In this document: positions 6,295 through 35,878 of the stretch, one piece after another
Layout of the letters: each line of letters begins with the position of its first letter
How positions within the stretch are numbered: the first letter of the stretch is position 1
Assembly: GCA_020426545.1 (NCBI GenBank)
Contig: JAGQPV010000001.1
Location: 1-41,901, forward strand
Source: Planctomycetaceae bacterium
Lineage (GTDB): Bacteria > Planctomycetota > Planctomycetia > Planctomycetales > Planctomycetaceae
Length of the DNA stretch: 41,901 nucleotides
Reading direction: 5' to 3'
Position numbers and translations under genes: made by a program
The notes under the pieces: model-generated
The model's input: the letters and a program-made list of their open reading frames with translations, nothing else
Told to the model about the DNA's origin: nothing
Databases searched by the model: none

Positions 6295-8202
6295 TCAGCG
6301 TTCGCTGTTCTGCACGTAGCCCTGCACCATCCGCAGCACCGCATCCTGCTGGCCGAGACTGATGCTGGTGTGCTTGCGAAGCCGGTCCAGCAGGGCGTTG
6401 CGGGTCACCGGTTTGAGCAGATAATCGGCAATGCCGACTTCCAGACACGACAGAATCGTCTCCCGGGAACGGTCTTCACTGTTCATGATGACCGGGATTG
6501 AAATCTGTGCATTGCGAACATCGCGGATCACATCGATGCCGCTGCCACACTTCAGATGGACTTCGCAGAGAATCGCATCGGCTTCTCTGGCCAGTTCCAC
6601 GGCTTCCAGCCCGGTGGTCGCCTGGAGCACCTGGACGCCCAGCGGGAGCAGCATCAGTCGAATGACGGAGACAATACTTTCCTCATCTTCGATGACCAGC
6701 AGGGCCGGTGCCCGCTTTGCCGTCACCGAGAGCTTCCTGTCAGTCAGCGGTTCCGAAGGAGGCAGGATGACATCCATCATCTTTGCCGCCGAAGTGGCCG
6801 ACAGATGCCCGTTCACAGAGAAGCTGCTGCCCTCAGTCGGGCTGGCCCCGGTCTCCACCGCGGGCACCCGTTCCCCTTCGCTCACCGGCTCGCCGGCCGC
6901 AAACCGGGAGATATCGGCCGTCAGGCTTTCCAGCGCGGCCGCCGAAGGGGCCGGCACGGAAAACATCGAGCTGAATTCCCGTGTTTTCTGCACTGCAGAC
7001 GCGAGGCAGGACTTGAACAGTTCCGGCTTCCCGCCAGACAGTGCGGTCATCTGAGACTGCAGCCGCTGGTGCCGCTGCGGGCCGGGCAAGTCGTACAGAT
7101 CGGCCACGGCCTCGCCCACCTTCATCAGCTGCAGGAGGTGCTGCTCCGCAGTGGAACACTCGCACTCTTCCGCCGGCGTATGGTGTTCCAGCGCAAGGCG
7201 GACAAAACTGCCGGGCAGTTCCCACCGCTGAAACAGAGCCGCCGAGACGGCCGCGTGGGTGAAGGCGAATTCCTGCTGTTCCGCGATGTGCAGCTGCAGC
7301 TGGCCGACGGTCCGACAGCGTTCCAGCACCCGCTGGTAGGGTTTTCCCAGCGCACGCGCCATGACCAGGACACCCAGATCCTGCAGCAGGCCGAGAATAT
7401 GAGCGGTGTCAGCGGAAACCTGCTTCGTGCGGGCCGCAAAAGCCGAGGCACTGGCCGCAATCAGAACGGTCCGAGGACGGAACCACTGCTCGAAGCCTTC
7501 CGGCAGCGTCTGCATCAGTTTCTGCTGGGAGTTCAGCACCGTGGTCGACAGCACAATGGCAACCGTCCGCCGGATCCCCAGCAGGTTCACGGCATCGAAC
7601 ACCCGCGTCACCTTGCTCCGCACCCCCGTGGAGGAGCTGTTGACGACCTTCAGCAGTTCGGCCGTAATACGCGGATCGGTGGACAGCTCCTCCGTCAGCT
7701 CGGCCATGGAGGCGGATTCGTTGTGGAGGTACCCCGGCAGCCGCACCAGCAGCTGCGGAATCGGCGGAACGTAATCCGCATCCCGCACCAGCACCCGCAC
7801 ACTGTGCGGAATGCTGACGCCAGGCTCATCCGCCGTCAGCAGTTCGCCTTTCAGAACGTCGACGATCGTTCCGGAATCCGTCTGTGTATCGAGCAGCGTT
7901 TTCACGTTCACGCGGGCTGCTTTTCCGCGCAGAGCGGCCACGTCCTTCGCCAGCAGAATCACAGCTGGCTGCAGCAGGTCGCCCGCCAGACGCTCAATGA
8001 TTTCAAGCCCCGACAGAAAGCCCGTCAGCTCCTGCTCGACAATGACGGCGTCAATCCGCTGGTGCTGCACCGTATGGCAGAAGTCGTCAGAGGTCGCGCA
8101 GACAACCGGCTCCGCGACGGCGCTCTCCTGGATGCGCTTCGCGATCTCTGCAGCGCGGCCAGAGTTTGCACACAGGAGTGCGACGACTTGCTTGTTGTTC
8201 AC
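6295..8202 (-). CDS. HDOD-domain signalling protein flanked by two receiver-like (REC) modules
   Basis: 635 aa with a GTG start at 8202. The central segment PPIPQLLVRLPGYLHNESASMAELTEELSTDPRITAELLKVVNSSS is typical of HDOD. The C-terminal module LLVIEDEES...ILCEVHLKCGSGIDV...VIMNS...YLLKP has receiver topology. Confidence 0.9.
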   Translation of the reverse strand: MNNKQVVALLCANSGRAAEIAKRIQESAVAEPVVCATSDDFCHTVQHQRIDAVIVEQELTGFLSGLEIIERLAGDLLQPAVILLAKDVAALRGKAARVNVKTLLDTQTDSGTIVDVLKGELLTADEPGVSIPHSVRVLVRDADYVPPIPQLLVRLPGYLHNESASMAELTEELSTDPRITAELLKVVNSSSTGVRSKVTRVFDAVNLLGIRRTVAIVLSTTVLNSQQKLMQTLPEGFEQWFRPRTVLIAASASAFAARTKQVSADTAHILGLLQDLGVLVMARALGKPYQRVLERCRTVGQLQLHIAEQQEFAFTHAAVSAALFQRWELPGSFVRLALEHHTPAEECECSTAEQHLLQLMKVGEAVADLYDLPGPQRHQRLQSQMTALSGGKPELFKSCLASAVQKTREFSSMFSVPAPSAAALESLTADISRFAAGEPVSEGERVPAVETGASPTEGSSFSVNGHLSATSAAKMMDVILPPSEPLTDRKLSVTAKRAPALLVIEDEESIVSVIRLMLLPLGVQVLQATTGLEAVELAREADAILCEVHLKCGSGIDVIRDVRNAQISIPVIMNSEDRSRETILSCLEVGIADYLLKPVTRNALLDRLRKHTSISLGQQDAVLRMVQGYVQNSER

Positions 8203-26623: not shown

Positions 26624-28045
26624 TCAGAATCCGTAGTTGATGGTGCTCAGGAATTCGGTCTGGCGAGCGTAGTCGCGGCCAGCGGACAGCGGCACGGACA
26701 GACCAACACCGACGCTGATGTTGTCCCGCAGCACGAAGGTCGAACCGACCGTCAGGTCGATGATGTGACGGGGCTCTTCTTCGACGAAGATGTCCTGACC
26801 GGTCGTGGTGATACCGGCGAAGTTCAGGGCCTGGCTCAGCTCGTAGTTGCTGACACCATAAGGATCAGCCTGGGTGGCATCCGACAGCACGTGGTGACCG
26901 AACAGTTCGATCTTCGGCACGATGCCCAGCAGCAGGGGCTGCTGCTGGCAGCTGTTGCAGTAGCCGCCGTAGCCGCCACCGTAGTAGCCGCCGTTGGCGA
27001 AGCCCACGTTGAACCGCGGGTCGATGCTCTCGTGGCGATAAGCCCAGTAACCGGCACCAATCGCCCAGTCCGCGGCGTACTTGTCGCCTTCCAGCGGCAC
27101 GTTCAGCTGAGTACCGAGGCTCAGGAACAGGTCCTCACTGGCCTGGTAGTAAGCCAGCAGACCGGGGTACAGACGAGCCTGGTTGTCACGATAAACCAGC
27201 TTGTCGGAACCGACTTCCGGAGCATAACCCAGAGTACCGGAGACGATCAGGTCGTTGTAGCACGAGCGGTACAGCACGTACTTGGCCATGATCTGGGGGT
27301 TGGTCCAGTCTTCAGCCGCCTGGCTGTCGTCGGTCACAACGTACTGGCCCTGCACGGCGAGACTGAAGTCGTCGCTGAAGGCGTATTCGATTCCGCCCCG
27401 GAAGGCGTGCTGGTCAAAGTCGTCACGGATGTCACCCGTGATACCGGCTGACCGCAGAGCAGCAATGGCCGTGGGGCTGGAAAGCCCTGAAAGCGTCCGC
27501 CCGTAAGGCGTCAGGATCGTGTTGGTGTTGGTACCTTCGGTGTAGATGTAGCTGGCCCACACCCGGCTGGTCGGAATGGCCGACATGTTGTCGAACAGGT
27601 TGAACCGGTTGTTCGAATCCAGACGACCCAGGAAGCCACCACCCGCACCACCACCGGCACCACCCGCTGCGGAGGCGGCCGGAGCAGCACCCATCACGCC
27701 GGGAGCAGCCTGCGGAGCGAACGCACCGGGATCAGCCTGCGGCTGAGCACCGGGATCCATGGGCTGAGCCATCGGATCCGCGTTCTGATCCATGGGCTGA
27801 GCCATCGGATCGGTGTTCTGCTCACCTTCCTTGCCTTCTGCCGGCGGCAGGTCGGCGGGAGTCGGCGCTGAATGAGTGCCGGGAGCGTAGGAATGAGGTG
27901 CCGGAGCATATGGCGAGGGGCAGCAGTTGGGCTGCACCTGCCACTGAGGTCCGGGGCCCTGGGCCTGAGCGGTTGCACCAAAGGCAACGCAGAGTCCAAG
28001 ACCAAGTGCCGCACGCAGCGGCTTGCGAATCCAGTGACTGATCAT
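26624..28045 (-). CDS. Putative outer-membrane beta-barrel (porin-like) protein with a low-complexity, repeat-bearing N-terminal region
   Basis: Track ORF 26624..28228. I prefer the ATG at 28045, which has GGGAAGGGGAATC upstream (MISHWIRKPLRAALGLGLCVAFGATAQA). Alternating aromatic/hydrophilic strands run through the protein and the C-terminus is ...STINYGF, with the terminal Phe typical of OMPs. Confidence 0.75.
   Translation of the reverse strand: MISHWIRKPLRAALGLGLCVAFGATAQAQGPGPQWQVQPNCCPSPYAPAPHSYAPGTHSAPTPADLPPAEGKEGEQNTDPMAQPMDQNADPMAQPMDPGAQPQADPGAFAPQAAPGVMGAAPAASAAGGAGGGAGGGFLGRLDSNNRFNLFDNMSAIPTSRVWASYIYTEGTNTNTILTPYGRTLSGLSSPTAIAALRSAGITGDIRDDFDQHAFRGGIEYAFSDDFSLAVQGQYVVTDDSQAAEDWTNPQIMAKYVLYRSCYNDLIVSGTLGYAPEVGSDKLVYRDNQARLYPGLLAYYQASEDLFLSLGTQLNVPLEGDKYAADWAIGAGYWAYRHESIDPRFNVGFANGGYYGGGYGGYCNSCQQQPLLLGIVPKIELFGHHVLSDATQADPYGVSNYELSQALNFAGITTTGQDIFVEEEPRHIIDLTVGSTFVLRDNISVGVGLSVPLSAGRDYARQTEFLSTINYGF
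27754..27811. repeat. In-frame 33-bp tandem repeat (2 copies; 25-nt identical cores) inside the porin-like gene
   Basis: GATCCATGGGCTGAGCCATCGGATC occurs at 27754-27778 and again at 27787-27811. It encodes DPMAQPMDQNA / DPMAQPMDPGA. Confidence 0.85.
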
Positions 28046-29026
28046 GATTCCCCTTCCCTGTGAGACGAATGAAGTCTCTGAGAATCCAAGTACGGGAGTA
28101 TTCGGAAAGTCTCCCTGTGAACTTCCCTGTATCTTCAACTTCAGATAGCTGACGTCTGATCCACTCAGAGACCGTGTGCCGGCCGGCATGGCGACCGGCG
28201 GTTCATCCGAATCTCCGGCACTCGGCATCTGACCGGAAGTATCGGGATGCGACAGCTTCTGCTTGACAACAGAGGAGGTGGAATTCTGCCGTCTTCAGCG
28301 AACAGGACGCCCAAAACCAACTGTGACTTGTGGGAGAAGTACTGAGGGACGGCGCATTCTTCGACGCGGGACTGGCGGACGATTCCTCACCTAACTGTCT
28401 TACCAGCAACCGGTTATCGCCACAGTGCACTCACAGGCAGCACGATGACGGTTTCCGCAGCAGCGAGCGGGTGCCCCGAATTCTGTGAAGACAGGCGATC
28501 TGCGAGCTGTATCGCAGTCGAATCAGTTGCTCCTGCTGACGAGGCAGTGAGCCCTCGACAGTCATTGCCCGACCGAAGCAGCTGTTACAGCCAGCAGCGT
28601 GCACCAGCTCTTCGCATCATCCGTAACCGGTACAGCCTGTGATTTGGCGTCTGGAATCGCCCCGCAGCAGATGCTGGCACACCTGAGCAGCCCCGGCCAG
28701 CAGCTCGAAACAGCTGGCATCCTCCCGGACAGAGCCAGAATCGAAGTCGCCGCGTCCCCTGCGAACTTCAGGGGGGGGGTGAGCCGAACGGCATCTCCGG
28801 GGCATTTCGCTCCGTCCGCTCAACCCGGCAGAGACCTGGATCGCACCGAAGCTGCTCCACGCAGCCGGCGAGGATCGGGGAGAACCGGCCAGCGCGATAC
28901 GCAAAACTGGCGGCGTTCCGCGATCAGCCCCTCGCTTCCCGCAAAGGCACGCCCGAGCCACCAGAACGCCCCGTGCCTGAGACCTGCAAACGCCAGATGG
29001 GCCAGCGGCTGGTTCAGAGAGTTAGC

Positions 29027-29592: not shown

Positions 29593-29661
29593 GGAACTCA
29601 GTACCGCGGTACGCGAATCTCAGTTTACAGGTCTCTCAGTCAATCAAAGGAACTCAATCCA

Positions 29662-29985
29662 ATGCTGCGCACACTGTGGAACGATGAAGCTGGTGTTGTT
29701 ATCTCCGCCGAACTGGTGCTCGTCCTGACAATCGCCGTCATCGCGATGGTCGTCGGTCTGCACGCTGTGGCCAAGTCGGTCACCATGGAACTGAACGATG
29801 TCGCCAATGCCATCGGTACCCTCGATCAGTCCTTCGGCTACGCCAGCCTGGTGAAGTCCACCCACGCTGCCGTCCCCGGTTCGGCCTTCGCCGATCGCCA
29901 GGATGCCTGCGACTGCACCGCGATCATTCAGGTTGCTCCGCAGCCCAAGGTCGACAACAGCGGAACCGGTGCCGAGAACCAGTGA
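29662..29985 (+). CDS. Flp/Fap-like type IVb prepilin-like protein, paralog 1 (107 aa)
   Basis: Internal ATG of track ORF 29179..29985, with AAAGGAAC upstream. MLRTLWNDEAG-VVISAELVLVLTIAVIAMVVGL resembles the Flp leader D-E-x-G / x-x-x-x-E-[YL] plus a hydrophobic helix. It has a ~60-aa C-terminal extension containing CDC. Confidence 0.7.
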   Translation: MLRTLWNDEAGVVISAELVLVLTIAVIAMVVGLHAVAKSVTMELNDVANAIGTLDQSFGYASLVKSTHAAVPGSAFADRQDACDCTAIIQVAPQPKVDNSGTGAENQ

Positions 29986-30088: not shown

Positions 30089-30649
30089 CGACCTGCTGTC
30101 GATGGCATTCACATCCGAATGCATCACCAGCTGCTCCCGCCGGCTCTGCCTGCCCGGTGCTGATTGAGCAGTCTGAAGCATGACCCCGGCAGAATACCGA
30201 GGAGTCGCAGCGCTCACTTCTCCTGACAGTCGCGCTTTACGCTTCGCTCACACGTGTTGACAGGCCCGACTGGCCTGACTCTCACGAAACCGGCTGACCG
30301 GTTGATCTCAGCCGCATGGCTAACATCCGCCTGGAACCGGGTTTAGCTGAAGCACCCGCCCCCTTGAGTCTCCCCGGGCGGCACCTGTCCCGCGGCCTTT
30401 GGCATGCCGTCTGCAATCTTCTGCCGGCAGGTCAGGCTCTGCATCGCTCGACACCGTGACATTCGTCGCCGATGCAGAACACGCTTTGCCGCTGGCTGAT
30501 TCCTCAGTCAGGCGGCTGCACAGCCCGGGTCCGGTCAGGCCCGGGATCGCTCGCAAAAAAAGGCCAGCCCCTTCGCCCCCGTGGCGAAGAGGAGCCCGGC
30601 GGGCAGTTACTTCTCTCACAGTGTGGTCAGGATACAGGGGACTCAGACA

Positions 30650-30985
30650 ATGTTGCGCAGCGGGAAAATGTTGTGGCAGGATGAAGCCGGTTTCGTGCTT
30701 TCAGCCGAACTGGTGCTCGTGATGACCGTCGCCGTTCTGGCGATGGTGGTCGGCCTGCATGCCGTGGCGAAAGCCGTGACGACCGAACTGAACGACGTGG
30801 CGAACGCCTTCGGAACTCTGGATCAGAGTTTCTCGTACAAGGGCCTCGTCAAGGCACATCATGCCAGCGTGGCTGGCGCCGCCTTCATCGATCGGGCCGA
30901 TGACTGCGACTGCACCGTCATTATTCAGCCCGCTCCGCGGCCCAAGGTCGATCACAGCGGCTGGATGGCCGAAAACGGCGACTGA
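30650..30985 (+). CDS. Flp/Fap-like type IVb prepilin-like protein, paralog 2 (111 aa)
   Basis: Internal ATG of track ORF 30581..30985. MLRSGKMLWQDEAG-FVLSAELVLVMTVAVLAMVVGL. About 70% identical to paralog 1 by eye, including GTLDQSF-Y, DCDCT-IIQ and PKVD-SG. Confidence 0.7.
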   Translation: MLRSGKMLWQDEAGFVLSAELVLVMTVAVLAMVVGLHAVAKAVTTELNDVANAFGTLDQSFSYKGLVKAHHASVAGAAFIDRADDCDCTVIIQPAPRPKVDHSGWMAENGD

Positions 30986-31037
30986 TCTGCACCGAACCAG
31001 CGACCACGCTGAACGATGGTTCGACGGATAACCAGCA

Positions 31038-31074
31038 GGCACTTTCGGCCACAATTGCCGGAAGTGCCTTTTCT
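31038..31074 (+). terminator. Rho-independent terminator after pilin paralog 2
   Basis: GGCACTTTCGGC (31038-31049) pairs with GCCGGAAGTGCC (31057-31068), 12 bp including one G-U, followed by TTTTCT. Confidence 0.7.
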
Positions 31075-31138
31075 GCTGCGCCACGCCTGGCGGACCGCCT
31101 GAAACGAACGATGAGACGGCACCTGCCTGCCAGCTGCT

Positions 31139-32734
31139 TCAGCGATGGCATACAGCGGGAGCGGTTCCGGCTGAGACCGTACGGGTTGCCTCCCCGGCAG
31201 AATGTTCTCCGGCAGCTGGTTCGCCGGCAGCCGGGTCTCTCGGAAGACTGCGGGAATCCGCCAGCAGCCGCTTCAGGCTCTGATAATTCACCGGCTTGAT
31301 CAGATGCCTGTCGAAGCCCGCCTGCATGGCCCGCTGCACATCTTCCGGCTGACCATAGCCCGTCAGCGCGATCAGGCTGATCTGACTTCCGTCCGGCATA
31401 CGGCGAATCCGTTCGGCCACTTCGTACCCGTTCAGGCCGGGCAGGCCGATATCAATCAGAGCGACATCACATACATGCGTGCCGGCCACCTCGACGGCTT
31501 CGCACCCGTCACCGCAGGCCAGCACCTGGTGACCTTCCAGTTCCAGCAGCAGGGCCAGCGTTTCGCGAATATCTTTCTGGTCCTCCACCAGCAGCACCCG
31601 CAGACCGTCTGACTCCGCCTCTTCCTCCGGCACGACTGTTTCCACAGTCTCTGCCTGCCGGGAAGCCAGTGGCAGCTGAACCAGGAACTCGCTGCCTGGC
31701 CCCGGCTCGGCTGCGCCGGCCGTCACCGAACCATGGTGCAGCCCGACCAGCGTTCTCACGAGCGACAGTCCGATTCCCAGTCCTTCTTCTGTCGAACCGG
31801 TATTGGCCCCCGCCTGCACGAAGGGTTCAAAGATCGAAGCCCGCAGTTCCCTGGGAATGCCGGGACCATTATCCCTCACTCGCACCATCGCGCAGTCGTC
31901 TTCCACCGACAGAGCGATCTGGATCCGCCCGCCAACGGGTGTGTACCTGACAGCATTCGCGAGAATGTTGGACAGAACCTGCGTGATGCGGGTGGGATCC
32001 ACTTCCACCAGCACGGGCTGCTCCGGCAGACTGCAGATCAGCTCATGCTGCCGGCTGGTCAGCTGCGGCTGTACGGTTTCCACTCCGGCCCGCACCAGAT
32101 CGGCCAGGTTGGCCGTCTCAATTTTCAGGCGGATCTTTCCCTGCGAAATCCGGGACAGATCCAGCAGGTCGTCCAGCAGCCGCGAGAGTTGACGGCACTG
32201 CCGGTCAATGACTCCCTGCGCAGCAGCACGGACGGAATCCACGGGGCCAGTGCTGTTCAGCAGGCCCACCGCGTTGCTGATGGCAGCCAGCGGATTCCGC
32301 AGCTCGTGCGACAGGACTGCCAGGAATTCATCCCGCTGGCTCACTTCGTTCCGTGCTTTTTCTGCCGCCAGCTTGTAACCGGTGATGTCTCTCAACGTGG
32401 CAAGAAACGCCGGTCGGTCCTGCCAGCGGGTCTCCACGGTTCTCATTTCCACGCAGCGGGTGGTGCCGTCCTTCTGCACCAGATGAATTTCCGCCTGTTC
32501 GCCGGGCGCTACCGGCAGACCGAACGGCTCGCCCAGCAGCGCATCCGCATCCCGGCCCAGCAGTTTCCCGGCGGCCGCATTCAGAAAGGCAATCGTGCCG
32601 GTTCCCGTGAGAATCACCACGCCATCGGCACTGCTGGTCACAACGGAATGGAAGTAGCTGCGGCTGGCTTCCAGCTGGCGACGCAATTCGTCGATTTGTT
32701 TCATGTCTCTGCGTTCGGACCGACGGCTGCTCAT
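31139..32734 (-). CDS. PAS-containing hybrid sensor histidine kinase (HisKA + HATPase_c + C-terminal receiver)
   Basis: H-box LAVLSHELRNPLAAI; N-box NILANAVRYT; G-boxes VRDNGPGIP and GLGIGLSLV. The receiver is LRVLLVEDQKD...VALIDIGLPGLNG...HLIKP. The ATG at 32734 overlaps the kaiB-like stop (ATGA); an alternative ATG is at 32704. Confidence 0.9.
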   Translation of the reverse strand: MSSRRSERRDMKQIDELRRQLEASRSYFHSVVTSSADGVVILTGTGTIAFLNAAAGKLLGRDADALLGEPFGLPVAPGEQAEIHLVQKDGTTRCVEMRTVETRWQDRPAFLATLRDITGYKLAAEKARNEVSQRDEFLAVLSHELRNPLAAISNAVGLLNSTGPVDSVRAAAQGVIDRQCRQLSRLLDDLLDLSRISQGKIRLKIETANLADLVRAGVETVQPQLTSRQHELICSLPEQPVLVEVDPTRITQVLSNILANAVRYTPVGGRIQIALSVEDDCAMVRVRDNGPGIPRELRASIFEPFVQAGANTGSTEEGLGIGLSLVRTLVGLHHGSVTAGAAEPGPGSEFLVQLPLASRQAETVETVVPEEEAESDGLRVLLVEDQKDIRETLALLLELEGHQVLACGDGCEAVEVAGTHVCDVALIDIGLPGLNGYEVAERIRRMPDGSQISLIALTGYGQPEDVQRAMQAGFDRHLIKPVNYQSLKRLLADSRSLPRDPAAGEPAAGEHSAGEATRTVSAGTAPAVCHR

Positions 32735-33039
32735 GACACACCCTGATGTAAGCTCTCATCCAGTTCGTAACTGGCCAGCAGCAGACCTTCGCGCACCTGC
32801 TGTTCATTCCGCAGGTTTCCCACGATTCGTCGCTGCGGGCCGGGAGCCTGCTGCACCAGGACCGGTGTTGCCAGCAGGTTTTCCCTGCGGACAGCATCCG
32901 GATTTCTCAGAACGTCGATCACATGCAGTTCATACTGCTCGTGGTAATCCGTGTTGCAGACCTGTCGAATCACATCGATTTCCCGGGCGTAACCGGCCGG
33001 GTCGCCAGCAATGAAGTAACAGAAACAGTAACGTGACAT
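32731..33039 (-). CDS. kaiB: KaiB-like protein (thioredoxin-like fold family)
   Basis: 102 aa. CFCYFIAGDPAGYAREIDVIRQVC...YELHVIDVLRNPDAVRRENLLATPVLVQQAPGPQRRIVGNLRNEQQV aligns by eye with the KaiB core (LYVAG...[25 protein letters not shown]...PVRRIIGDLSD). Confidence 0.85.
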   Translation of the reverse strand: MSRYCFCYFIAGDPAGYAREIDVIRQVCNTDYHEQYELHVIDVLRNPDAVRRENLLATPVLVQQAPGPQRRIVGNLRNEQQVREGLLLASYELDESLHQGVS

Positions 33040-33382
33040 TCAACGGGCTGCCTTTGCAGACATGATCCGGAAATCGCTGAACCGCCCCGCGACAGCCCCC
33101 GTGGCACGGAGCAGCCCGGTCAGGGGGATTTCCCCTGATCGCCTTCGACTGATCCACAAGATGCCCTGAAGAAGCAGTTCCCGGGCCAATGCGCAGCCCG
33201 TCAGTTCCAGCCACCGGGCAGTCTTCTGATCGGTTCTACCTGAGGCAGCTGCACGGCCGGAGAATCACGCGGGCTGACAGTGCAGCTCGCGGGATCATCC
33301 TGAAACCATACAGCCGGGCCGGCCTGCGCGGACTGGCAGCCGGTATTCAGCGGGTGAAGGAACGAACCAGACAGATTCTGCA

Positions 33383-34198
33383 TCACACAGAGCTGGAGGT
33401 CACCTTCAGCTCGCGGGCCATCTCACGCACCAGCGATTCCGGATCAAGCGGCTTGGCAAACCAGCGGTCGATACCCTGCGGCCCGGTCTGGATGTCGTAT
33501 TCCTCCGGTTTGCTGCCGCTGATGGCAAAGACCTTCAACCCTTCCAGCGCGGGATCACGGCGGATCTGCTGCAGAGTTTCCGGTCCGCTGCAGCGGGGCA
33601 TCCGCATATCCAGCAGGACCACATCCGGACGGTCGGTCGCACGCAGCAGATCGAGTGCAGCACACCCGTCCTGCGCGGTCACCACTTCAAAGCCGCTCAT
33701 CCGCAGAAATCCGGCCAGCAGCTCGCGCTCGTTGGAATCGTCCTCGACGACCAGAGCCCGCATCCCGCCACCTGAAGAGGGCGCGTGCAGCTGAGATTCC
33801 ACCGACTGCAGCTGGCTCAGCAGACGTTCAAATGTGGATTCCACATCGGTGATACTGCCCATTGACAGCTGCTTCTTCAGCAGATGCAGCGCCAACGTGG
33901 CACCATTCAGCCGGTTGGCCAGGCTGTGGCGGAACTCCCGGTTCCGTGCCTCCTGCTCGGACGAGGCTGCAGCAGCGCTCGGCGAAGCAGCAGTCACGGG
34001 CGACTTCGCGGAACTTGCACTGGTGGTGGTATTCTCCGCGGGCAGCCGGGACGCGACTTCGTCCCGCAGCACCTTGATTTCAGGAGGCGCATCGACACCA
34101 AGTTTGACGATGTTGCCGCGGACGCGAAGCACTTCGATCGTAATTCCGATGTTGGGAAATACGATCTTCTGATCAGGCCGACGAGACAGGACAAGCAT
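33383..34198 (-). CDS. CsrA-domain / H-box helix / receiver-domain fusion protein (271 aa)
   Basis: The ATG at 34198 is preceded by GAAGGGGAAAGGAAACCCGGT. Residues 1-52, MLVLSRRPDQKIVFPNIGITIEVLRVRGNIVKLGVDAPPEIKVLRDEV, align with E. coli CsrA [47 protein letters not shown]. Residues ~88-135 form an EFRHSLANRLNGATLALHLL HisKA-like helix. Residues ~146-260 are a receiver (VVEDD, VVLLDMRMP, FAISG, FAKP). The frame stays open upstream to a GTG at 34642, so a longer N-terminus cannot be excluded. Confidence 0.8.
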   Translation of the reverse strand: MLVLSRRPDQKIVFPNIGITIEVLRVRGNIVKLGVDAPPEIKVLRDEVASRLPAENTTTSASSAKSPVTAASPSAAAASSEQEARNREFRHSLANRLNGATLALHLLKKQLSMGSITDVESTFERLLSQLQSVESQLHAPSSGGGMRALVVEDDSNERELLAGFLRMSGFEVVTAQDGCAALDLLRATDRPDVVLLDMRMPRCSGPETLQQIRRDPALEGLKVFAISGSKPEEYDIQTGPQGIDRWFAKPLDPESLVREMARELKVTSSSV

Positions 34199-34302
34199 AC
34201 CGGGTTTCCTTTCCCCTTCAGTCGGTTCCACTGGCGAACCATCGCCAGGAACCGAAATCCCCACCCTGGGATCCTGCGCAGCGACGGCCTGACTCTCAGG
34301 TC

Positions 34303-34328
34303 GATTCCATGCACAGGGCATCCGTGCC
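34303..34328 (-). promoter_or_regulatory. Pair of CsrA-consensus-like GGA sites (GGCACGGAUGCC and GCAUGGAAUC)
   Basis: The minus strand reads GGCACGGATGCC-CTGT-GCATGGAATC. The first can form a 4-bp stem presenting CGGA in the loop. GGA-to-GGA spacing is 15 nt. Confidence 0.4.
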
Positions 34329-34613
34329 TGTCCGCAGAGCCTGCTCAGTTGACGGCAGGCGGCAGAATGGAAATGATGCGGAAGCCCTGCGGACTGCTGA
34401 TGGTTCACACTCCACAAAAAGAGTGCAACTTCCCAGTAACCGGGTACTCCTGCCTTCAGTTCGAACTTCTGCTCGTTACCGACAGCAGCCAGCTGGCTGC
34501 ACTGCAAACCACACCACTGAACAAACAACGGTGCGGACAGGATTCGGACAGCATTTGAAGGAGAACGGCTCTCCGCAATCCCTGCGAAGACCCTTCCGTG
34601 GCGCCCATGGTCT

Positions 34614-34638
34614 GAGCATCCATGCTCGGATTCCATGT
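34614..34638 (-). promoter_or_regulatory. Pair of CsrA-consensus-like GGA sites (ACAUGGAAUC and GAGCAUGGAUGCUC)
   Basis: The minus strand reads ACATGGAATC-C-GAGCATGGATGCTC. The second is a palindrome that can present AUGGAU in a hexaloop, and CAUGGAUG matches the CARGGAUG core of the CsrA SELEX consensus except for R to U. GGA spacing is 13 nt. Confidence 0.4.
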
Positions 34639-34893
34639 TCACAGCATTTTTCTAGCGTCGCCCCCCTCATCCGTCAAGATCGGTTTTCCCCAGGTTTTTT
34701 GAACGACGTAAATCACTGCTGTGGCATAAGATGGATTCGACCAGCCCTTGGGCACTCCTGCTGAACCCGGAATGCGGGGGACATCGGTCTTGCAGAACCG
34801 ACGGAATTCTGCACGAAATCCCGCAAAATCGGCACCAGCGGGACAAACCGCGGTATTGACACAGCCATCGCAAACTGCGTATTCTGACATCAT
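34639..34893 (-). CDS. Possible small Cys-containing protein (84 aa), unknown family
   Basis: An ATGATG at 34893/34890 is preceded by GGAGAG 9 nt upstream (MMSEYAVCDGCVNTAVCPAGA...). GC3 is lower than in neighbouring genes. Its stop TGA overlaps (GTGA) a GTG that opens the long frame of the CsrA-fusion gene. No family recognised. Confidence 0.3.
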   Translation of the reverse strand: MMSEYAVCDGCVNTAVCPAGADFAGFRAEFRRFCKTDVPRIPGSAGVPKGWSNPSYATAVIYVVQKTWGKPILTDEGGDARKML

Positions 34894-35041
34894 CTCAACT
34901 GTCTCTCCGCGTGCCGCCTCAACGGCATGACGCATCATGCACAGCTGCCCGCACGACTGAACAGTCTGCCGGCGGGCTGCCCCAGGCGTTCCGCTGCGAA
35001 ATGGAGTCCTTGAACAGACTCTGCAACGCAACGGGGCCAGA

Positions 35042-35878
35042 ATGACCGGGAAGAACACGACAGAGCAGATCTCGCCGGCGGCAGTCATGCAGCTGGAGCG
35101 GGCGGAGTTCCATCAGGCCGCGGGCCGGCTCGCTGATGCCGCTGTGGATTACCACGCCGCAATCGAACTCGATCCCTCACCTCGCAGCCAGCTGGCATTC
35201 AGCAGGTTTCTGAGCCAGTCGGACTGTCCCCAGGCGGCCGAGTCTCTACTGAAGGCTCTGGTCGATCGCGCCCGGCGTGAACAGGACGGCCAGCTGATGG
35301 CCGTGGCGGCGGGAAACCTGGCCTGCGTCCTGCGGGAATGTGGCCGGTTTGCTGAAGCCGCCGGCTGGCAGCAGCGTTCCCTCGCGGCAGAAATGCAGCG
35401 GGAGAGCAGCGCGGGGGAGGGCACCTCAGAGCCGGGCGAACTCGCTACCGACCTGATTAATCTGGCGGGCGATGCCATTGCCGCGGGCAGGCTGTCGCTG
35501 GCGGAATCACTGGCAACCCGCGCTCTGCAGCTGGGCCAGTCCAGTCACGATCAGCCCGGCGAAGCGGCTGCCTGGGGAGTTCTCGGGCTGGTGGCTCTGC
35601 AGCAGCAGAAGCTCGACAACGCGCTCACGTTGCTGGGCCGCGCGTTCCGACTGCACTGCACGCTGCAGGATGCTGAAGCCGCTGGCCGTGATCTGCTCAA
35701 TCTGGCGGAAACCTGCCATCGGATGCAGCGGTGGCATTCGGCCGCCCGCTGTCTGAAACACGCCGCCGATCGCTTTCGCGAAACCGGTTGCGTGCGACTG
35801 CTGCAGGTGGCGATGGCCCGGCTGAAGGAAGCCCAGCGGTTCTTCGCCGTCACCACGTTGCCACCCACCCTGAACTGA
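35042..35878 (+). CDS. Tetratricopeptide (TPR) repeat protein
   Basis: 278 aa of Ala/Leu-rich helical repeats (AGRLADAAVDYHAAIELDP, GRFAEAAGWQQRSL, GEAAAWGVLGLVALQQQKLDNALTLLGRAF, RWHSAARCLKHAADRF). Confidence 0.8.
   Translation: MTGKNTTEQISPAAVMQLERAEFHQAAGRLADAAVDYHAAIELDPSPRSQLAFSRFLSQSDCPQAAESLLKALVDRARREQDGQLMAVAAGNLACVLRECGRFAEAAGWQQRSLAAEMQRESSAGEGTSEPGELATDLINLAGDAIAAGRLSLAESLATRALQLGQSSHDQPGEAAAWGVLGLVALQQQKLDNALTLLGRAFRLHCTLQDAEAAGRDLLNLAETCHRMQRWHSAARCLKHAADRFRETGCVRLLQVAMARLKEAQRFFAVTTLPPTLN

Follow-up and report, generated by a model that had tools for sequence, protein, structure and literature searches.

A cluster of three genes in the 41,901-nt stretch of Planctomycetaceae bacterium DNA analysed here (assembly GCA_020426545.1, contig JAGQPV010000001.1; the whole stretch is called the window below) probably encodes a His-Asp-His-Asp phosphorelay in which the last two steps and the output are carried by one protein. 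This protein is a fusion of CsrA, a helical hairpin of the dimerization and histidine phosphotransfer (DHp) type and a C-terminal receiver (REC). Its gene is followed head-to-tail by those of a KaiB homologue and a hybrid histidine kinase, all three on the minus strand. A relay of this kind had been proposed in a preliminary description of the locus, and it is now supported by several comparative lines, namely synteny, DHp homology, the hybrid status of the kinases, split receivers and a His-less subfamily.

In the proposed relay, the PAS-sensing kinase would autophosphorylate at H143 and transfer the phosphoryl group to D428 of its own receiver. The kinase receiver would then dock on the ATPase-less DHp hairpin, presumably a dimer, within the fusion and phosphorylate H91, as Spo0F uses Spo0B or the CckA receiver uses ChpT. 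From H91 the phosphoryl group would pass to D197 of the flexibly tethered C-terminal receiver. Once phosphorylated, this receiver, which has an intact S227/W246 switch pair, would alter the binding of the CsrA dimer to GGA-containing mRNA leaders, so that control would be translational, not transcriptional. Sequence and comparative analysis show the identities of the domains, the His-on-His homology of the hairpin to a kinase DHp, the conserved linkage to a receiver of the hybrid-kinase type and the co-occurrence of the kinase receiver with H91; phosphotransfer, its direction and the control of CsrA by the receiver are inferred.

The second His of the relay is placed in the helical region between CsrA and the receiver. 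Conservation was counted in 184 distinct fusion-family sequences, which are mutually only about 40-50 % identical. The family H-box, H91-x-[LVM]-[RK]-N95-x-L97-[NH], is near-invariant in this set (H in 176 sequences, N in 173, L in 177) and is judged to be no chance match. When the profile of the fusion hairpin is aligned with that of the partner-kinase family DHp (hhalign, probability 93.6 %, E 2e-7), H91 coincides with the phospho-acceptor His of the kinase motif HELRNPL, and N95 and L97 coincide with its Asn and Leu. Among 20 isolated hairpin segments, HisKA was the sole recurrent Pfam match (7/20 segments, best E 1.6e-4, all sub-threshold); SPOB_a was matched by a single segment (E 0.089) and Hpt, the His-containing phosphotransfer domain, by none. 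In the AlphaFold2 (AF2) model of the hairpin domain, the predicted local distance difference test score (pLDDT) is 92 and the His lies on helix 1; the model of the complete fusion has a mean pLDDT of 84.9. The helical region is thus best read as a divergent, kinase-derived DHp hairpin without an ATPase.

The fusion itself is not a histidine kinase. Pfam finds no HATPase_c or HATPase-like domain in it, and the approximately nine residues between the end of helix 2 (137) and the start of the receiver (147) leave no space for an ATPase domain. In the fusion family, the residue following the His (H+1) varies among A, R, E, Q, D and L, and Arg predominates at H+5; in the kinases, Glu at H+1 and Pro at H+5 are both invariant (120/120 sequences). 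The role of the acidic H+1 residue in HisKA is in autophosphorylation. That the fusion has lost it and has no catalytic, ATP-binding (CA) domain agrees with a His that takes its phosphate from a receiver and not from ATP. The preliminary description of the fusion as an ATPase-less H-box helix followed by a receiver agrees with the HisKA-like hhalign match, His on His, and with the missing HATPase_c, and its numbering of H91 and D197 is right, both codons having been checked (D197 at 33608-33610).

The first half of the relay is represented by the hybrid kinase, in which Pfam recognizes PAS (residues 28-118), HisKA (133-199, 62 bits), HATPase_c (246-357, 94 bits) and, C-terminally, Response_reg (380-489, 83 bits); Hpt is not among the matches. 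This confirms the earlier claim that the kinase has its own receiver and lacks an Hpt domain. Its key residues are H143, D428, T458-G-Y and H477. The kinase H-box H-E-L-R-x-P is invariant in 120/120 homologues. The kinase receiver has an LxALTGYG motif (T 118/120, G 120/120, Y 113/120), and His occupies the switch position K-3 in 118 of the 120 homologues. A 'FATGUY' motif has been described in intermediary receivers that serve DHp-type partners, such as CckA-Rec, MrrA and SdrG, the meaning of the motif being unsettled (PMC9981736). The T-G-Y of the kinase receiver resembles this motif, a suggestive likeness that would fit an intermediary receiver.

Apart from the kinase and the fusion, the window encodes neither a kinase nor a protein with a His-box. 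The fusion had been named as the only other combination of a His-box and a receiver in the neighbourhood, which holds for the window as a whole: the sole further receiver is the C-terminal domain of a 635-aa HDOD protein (6295-8202, minus strand), about 23 kb off and with no obvious link to the cluster. A dedicated Hpt protein, which the preliminary description had allowed for as an alternative partner of the kinase, was not found either; Hpt (PF01627) is absent from the kinase and the fusion, from the remainder of the window and from the annotated neighbourhoods of the homologues.

Homologues of the fusion number more than 2000 and belong to Planctomycetota wherever the source is named, the named sources including Pirellulales, Thermoguttaceae, Gemmataceae, Isosphaera, Stieleria and Lacipirellula. 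A search with the hairpin profile returned 361 clusters at 50 % identity, nearly all with the CsrA-DHp-REC architecture. It is about an even question whether these proteins form a widespread planctomycete class of 'self-relaying' RNA-binding response regulators, in which a kinase-derived DHp His, a terminal receiver and CsrA are fused, a four-step relay switches CsrA-type translational control and an orphan KaiB gates one sub-variant.

Gene neighbourhoods were sampled in 23 genomic loci, about 70 metagenomic loci and 10 annotated contexts, and neighbours were classed by hidden Markov models (HMMs) of the two families, kinase and fusion; flanks of at least 1.5 kb on both sides of the fusion were regarded as adequate. 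An orthologue of the kinase receiver was found within 1.8 kb of the fusion in 24/33 His-bearing, well-flanked loci, a count that includes one locus (L013) where the orthologue is 2.4 kb off, beyond a kaiB gene. The kinase gene may follow the fusion gene on the same strand, precede it on that strand or converge with it. These three arrangements argue for selection on the linkage, beyond simple inheritance. Partner kinases occur in two forms, a short PAS form, as in the window, and a long CheB-CheR-PAS_10-PAS form; all 30 partners whose C-terminus lies on the contig are hybrid, and none has an Hpt. Conserved synteny of all three genes, suggested as a check in the preliminary description, was found for the fusion-kinase pair, with kaiB joining it in nine loci only.

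A merely coincidental adjacency, with the genes being neighbours by descent only and the conserved His being structural, is hardly credible. Hybrid kinases and orphan regulators are numerous in planctomycete genomes, and 9/33 well-flanked loci are without a partner, as coincidence would allow. It would not account for a pair kept in three independent arrangements, for the linkage retained by split-receiver variants, for the correlated loss of the His and the kinase receiver, or for the His-on-His homology to the kinase DHp.

The commonest partner of the family is a protein of 1300-1600 aa in which a CheB methylesterase and a CheR methyltransferase are fused to PAS_10-PAS-HisKA-HATPase-REC (loci L003, L006, L007, L010, L023, L086, L090, L113 and L134). 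Two CsrA-receiver paralogues stand side by side in L016 (8001-8792 and 9326-10096), L102 (810-1652 and 2175-3020), L161 and L162. In L016 and L102, the H-box His is present in one member of the pair and replaced by Q or E in the other, which may reflect sub-functionalization after duplication.

Two kinds of natural variants bear on the relay. In L082/83, L095 and L097, the neighbour of the fusion is a stand-alone receiver, with no kinase core nearby. These receivers match the kinase-receiver HMM (137-162 bits) much better than the HMM of the fusion receivers (50-66 bits), and they share the kinase-receiver motifs LxA[LM]TG[YF] and GFDxHLxKP. The conserved partner of the fusion is therefore the intermediate receiver itself, as a Spo0F-to-Spo0B-like step predicts. 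The second kind is a His-less subfamily (P0241-P0273, including proteins of Stieleria marina and Rubripirellula obstinata), in which H91 and N95 are lost and D197 is kept. The kinase beside the His-less fusion is non-hybrid in 3/3 cases: in L021 and L159 it is a CheB-CheR-PAS_10-HisKA-HATPase protein that ends right after the ATPase domain, and in L162 a dCache-HAMP-PAS-HisKA-HATPase protein. A kinase-type receiver was found beside none of six well-flanked His-less fusions. Stieleria marina carries both types of fusion, each with the matching type of kinase (L012, L159). The first Asp, that of the kinase receiver, and the second His, H91, thus appear to be gained or lost jointly.

These variants make the main rival reading unlikely, namely that the kinase and the fusion form a plain two-component pair in which the kinase phosphorylates D197 directly, the kinase receiver serves as a competing sink or auto-inhibitor, and the hairpin is a dimerization or transmitter element and perhaps a D197 phosphatase. 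Such direct transfer leaves unexplained why H91 is kept in 96 % of the sequences and lost only where the kinase is non-hybrid. It also leaves unexplained the genomes that keep a kinase-type receiver alone, without a kinase, beside the fusion, and the lack of any non-hybrid orthologue beside a His-bearing fusion (0/30). Still, N95 (173/184) is the residue most tied to HisKA phosphatase activity, a CsrA dimer would gain from a second dimerizing element, and the His-less subfamily shows a kinase-to-D197 route to be workable in relatives.

The two ends of the fusion bear on the direction of transfer. By domain tests, the fusion is a genuine member of both the CsrA family and the receiver family, and it differs from the free-standing form of CsrA as a three-domain protein of 271 aa. 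CsrA residues L2, R6, R45 and E47 are invariant in the family and L4 is kept in 181/184 sequences; the four invariant residues match L2, R6, R44 and E46, which we take, from our own reading of the E. coli sequence, to be the corresponding RNA-binding residues of E. coli CsrA. In the receiver, where the Response_reg match spans residues ~147-258 (73 bits), D153, D197 and S/T227 are found in 184/184 sequences and W246 and K249 in 183/184. The S227/W246 pair is suggestive of a terminal, allosteric receiver.

A reverse flow or drain is distinctly improbable. In one version, the DHp-REC part of the fusion would be a phosphate sink for the kinase receiver or another donor; in the other, CsrA would be the input, and bound RNA would control the DHp-REC part, which in turn tunes the kinase. 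The fusion would suit such a role in that CsrA holds the N-terminal place usual for sensor domains, upstream of the DHp. DHp-receiver transfers are also reversible, as established for Spo0F/Spo0B and CckA/ChpT, and there appear to be DHp(His)-REC proteins that lack CsrA (P0357, P0364, P0401, P0432), suggesting a function of the module on its own. All this has to be set against a receiver that keeps the S/T and aromatic switch pair of terminal receivers (S227, and W246 in all sequences but one), a conserved neighbourhood that encodes no further output, and RNA-binding residues of CsrA that are invariant, as expected of an effector.

The four proteins without CsrA are about 200 aa long, start with Met and consist of an H-box hairpin and a receiver; they may represent DHp(His)-REC modules that stand alone, or their gene starts may be mis-called. 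Another short form was seen in two metagenomic loci (L130 5953-6297 and L143 2120-2464), where CsrA is followed by the first hairpin helix only and the protein of ~100 aa stops after 'QLDQGAAL'. Gln replaces the H-box His in one of them. Both may be pseudogenes left by truncation, or they may represent a short CsrA-helix variant.

For the last step of the relay reading, the most likely coupling, given the nature of the linker, would be a phosphorylation-dependent occlusion or release of the RNA-binding face of CsrA by the receiver or the hairpin, resembling a built-in FliW-like antagonist. The linker between CsrA and the hairpin is disordered and differs in length by tens of residues among the homologues, so rigid helical transmission is unlikely. 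GGA motifs occur in the ribosome-binding region of the fusion's own gene, GAAGGGGAAAGGAAACCCGGTATG, and are not significant; they are a hint of autoregulation, not evidence for it. No Csr/Rsm-type sponge RNA was detected in the window with Rfam at the gathering threshold. The density of GGA/AGGA has no outlier near the cluster, and the window contains no GGA-dense region.

Several observations weigh against the relay. The long disordered linker between CsrA and the DHp leaves the coupling to RNA binding unexplained, and the 343-nt gap after the fusion gene means that its co-transcription with kaiB and the kinase is not assured. The hairpin segment of the window's own fusion gets no Pfam HisKA score, and the matches of Foldseek to the isolated hairpin, at E > 3, were generic hairpins such as Rop, 14-3-3 and designed bundles, HK853 ranking 19th. 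Foldseek with the model of the whole protein gave mostly receiver matches and nothing informative on the hairpin. Searches of PDB sequences returned receivers only for the full fusion and coiled-coil noise only for the hairpin profile. The structure searches thus add nothing on the hairpin, since two-helix hairpins are too generic. An Asn at H+4 is a hallmark of DHp phosphatase activity in HisKA, and N95, conserved together with H91, means that the hairpin could dephosphorylate instead of relaying. The nine His-bearing, well-flanked fusions with no adjacent partner also count here. The association of the His with the kinase receiver has a Fisher p of 0.0015, or 0.011 when collapsed to ~4 independent losses, values that overstate independence because the sequences are related; the correlation of His-less fusions with non-hybrid kinases consists of three loci, and the loss of the His probably reflects only a few evolutionary events.

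The coordinates of the cluster are listed in Table 1.

Table 1. Features of the fusion-kaiB-kinase cluster, in window positions (residue numbers are those of the encoded proteins)
Feature	Position	Strand	Basis and remarks
CsrA-DHp(His)-REC fusion, 271 aa	33383..34198	-	Pfam CsrA + Response_reg
CsrA domain, residues 1-51	34046..34198	-	PF02599, 57 bits (cutoff 27)
Low-complexity linker, residues 52-75, variable length	33974..34045	-	pLDDT <50 at residues 51-69
DHp-like helical hairpin, helices 76-113 and 116-137	33788..33973	-	H-box H91-x-L-x-N95-x-L97; pLDDT 88-95 in the full model
H91 codon, proposed phosphotransfer His	33926..33928	-	kept in 176/184; codon checked
Terminal receiver, residues 147-262	33413..33760	-	PF00072, 73 bits; D153, D197, S227, W246, K249
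Spacer between fusion and kaiB, 343 nt	33040..33382	-	no convincing promoter or terminator
KaiB homologue, 102 aa	32731..33039	-	PF07689, 65 bits
Hybrid kinase PAS-HisKA-HATPase-REC, 531 aa (521 aa if from M11)	31139..32734	-	Pfam domains

The stop codon of kaiB overlaps the start codon of the kinase gene (ATGA), which suggests translational coupling of the two. The fusion had been placed 343 nt upstream of the kinase on the same strand. The strand is right; the 343 nt run to the start of kaiB, and the distance from the fusion stop to the kinase start is 648 nt. A scan of the spacer found merely a weak 5-bp stem (33324-33312) and no promoter-like site on the minus strand, and a wider scan for promoters and terminators (30900-35100) yielded no operon boundaries that could be used. 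In other genomes, the fusion and kaiB are 4-900 nt apart, or the genes are rearranged. An open reading frame of 419 aa that starts from GTG at 34642 was rejected as the fusion gene. MLVLSRR is the N-terminus in 184/184 homologues, so the ATG (M) at 34198 is taken as the true start.

The KaiB homologue is colinear over residues 4-94 with the cyanobacterial KaiB structure 2qke (E 7e-14). A kaiB gene lies between the fusion and a short PAS-type kinase in nine distinct loci (the window, L001/L085, L013, L088, L093, L094, L098, L104 and L111). It is always just upstream of the short PAS-type kinase, usually abutting or overlapping it, and never accompanies the CheB-CheR-type kinase. KaiB is thus evidently an optional accessory of the PAS-kinase variant and not of the whole family. 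No KaiC was found among the open reading frames of the window or in the KaiB-containing neighbourhood L085. By analogy with KaiB-CikA/SasA, KaiB may bind the kinase or its receiver; modulation of the cluster's signal by KaiB, as raised in the preliminary description, is a possibility only.

Other genes surround the cluster. A TPR gene (35042-35878) and two Flp-like genes were excluded from the system, tblastn having found no counterpart in 23 related loci. The latter two, at 29653-29985 and 30581-30985 on the plus strand, encode paralogous small proteins that are 72 % identical, lie ~1 kb apart and share a direct repeat of 289 nt. Both have a hydrophobic N-terminal segment of the Flp-type pilin-like kind, and their genes converge with that of the kinase; their sole Pfam match is a weak one to Sec61_beta, and they are not kept beside the fusion in the 23 related loci. 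Between the start of the fusion and the divergent TPR gene, ~840 nt (34199-35041) contain no convincing gene and have no Rfam match, the long open reading frame there being merely a 5' extension of the fusion reading frame. The gene at 26624-28228 (minus strand) encodes a protein of 534 aa without a Pfam match, with Pro/Gln-rich DPMAQPMD repeats near the N-terminus and a Gly/Tyr-rich C-terminal half, which may be a surface or outer-membrane protein. The window also carries PSD/PSCyt and DUF1552 genes, which, like the Planctomycetota affiliation of the best homologues, agrees with its planctomycete origin.

Full-text literature searches found no study of CsrA-receiver fusions, of CsrA in planctomycetes or of KaiB beside kinases in planctomycetes. 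The pairing of CsrA with a receiver is visible in database names ('Translational regulator CsrA', 'response regulator'), and no annotation recognizes the embedded His domain. The combination may, reportedly, be listed in Galperin's censuses of response regulators. CsrA is among the best-studied global post-transcriptional regulators, and to our knowledge all known control of CsrA runs via sponge RNAs or partner proteins. If the relay is true, CsrA would be controlled directly by two-component phosphorylation, which would be new as a regulatory principle, and apart from ANTAR the fusions would be the only class of response regulators that bind RNA. A DHp-type His inside the regulator would be a third answer to the hybrid kinase's need for a second His, besides Hpt and free Spo0B/ChpT, and the multi-step phosphorelay would have both a new wiring and a new output. 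The family occurs in cultured species (Stieleria marina, Lacipirellula limnantheis, Rubripirellula obstinata), and the relay hypothesis is therefore directly testable, the His-less and non-hybrid variants being natural ready-made controls. The KaiB-containing variant offers a lead on the function of orphan KaiB outside cyanobacteria.

With regard to output, the cluster shares a canonical CsrA domain with CsrA/RsmA regulators, and it would be expected to bind at ribosome-binding sites that contain GGA motifs. The CsrA proteins known so far are free-standing, have ~60-70 aa and are controlled by sponge RNAs (CsrB/RsmY) or partner proteins (FliW, CesT), whereas control here would come from phosphorylation of a covalently attached receiver. 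The ANTAR regulators (AmiR, EutV, NasT) likewise direct two-component output to RNA and not DNA. They differ in having another RNA-binding fold, acting by antitermination, and carrying an N-terminal receiver and no embedded His domain; the fusion presumably acts on translation or RNA stability. In the cyanobacterial clock, KaiB is also coupled to histidine kinases, SasA having a KaiB-like N-terminal domain and CikA a pseudo-receiver that binds KaiB. The present cluster differs from it in that the window has no KaiC or KaiA, KaiB is a separate gene, and a hybrid PAS kinase would feed a CsrA protein and not RpaA.

With regard to wiring, ArcB, BvgS and TorS and the relays of the LuxU/Ypd1 type have in common with the cluster the His-Asp-His-Asp logic that starts from a hybrid kinase. 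Unlike them, the cluster has no Hpt fold, and its second His is on the regulator polypeptide and not on that of the kinase. In Spo0F-Spo0B-Spo0A of Bacillus and CckA-ChpT-CtrA/CpdR of Caulobacter, as predicted here, a DHp hairpin that derives from a kinase and is unable to autophosphorylate carries the second His on its helix 1, and there is no monomeric Hpt. The donor receiver may be kinase-fused, as in CckA, or free-standing, as in Spo0F, and both variants occur in the fusion loci. The T-G-Y of the kinase receiver described here is a 'FATGUY-like' beta4 motif, as in CckA-Rec (PMC9981736). Spo0B and ChpT are separate proteins with a degenerate CA-like domain, while the fusion has no CA remnant and joins the phosphotransferase to both the acceptor receiver and the output domain. 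With no CA-like domain and no SPOB_a match, the fusion is not a member of the Spo0B/ChpT type. In terms of function, the DHp-type phosphotransferase relays of Spo0B and ChpT are nevertheless the systems closest to the cluster.

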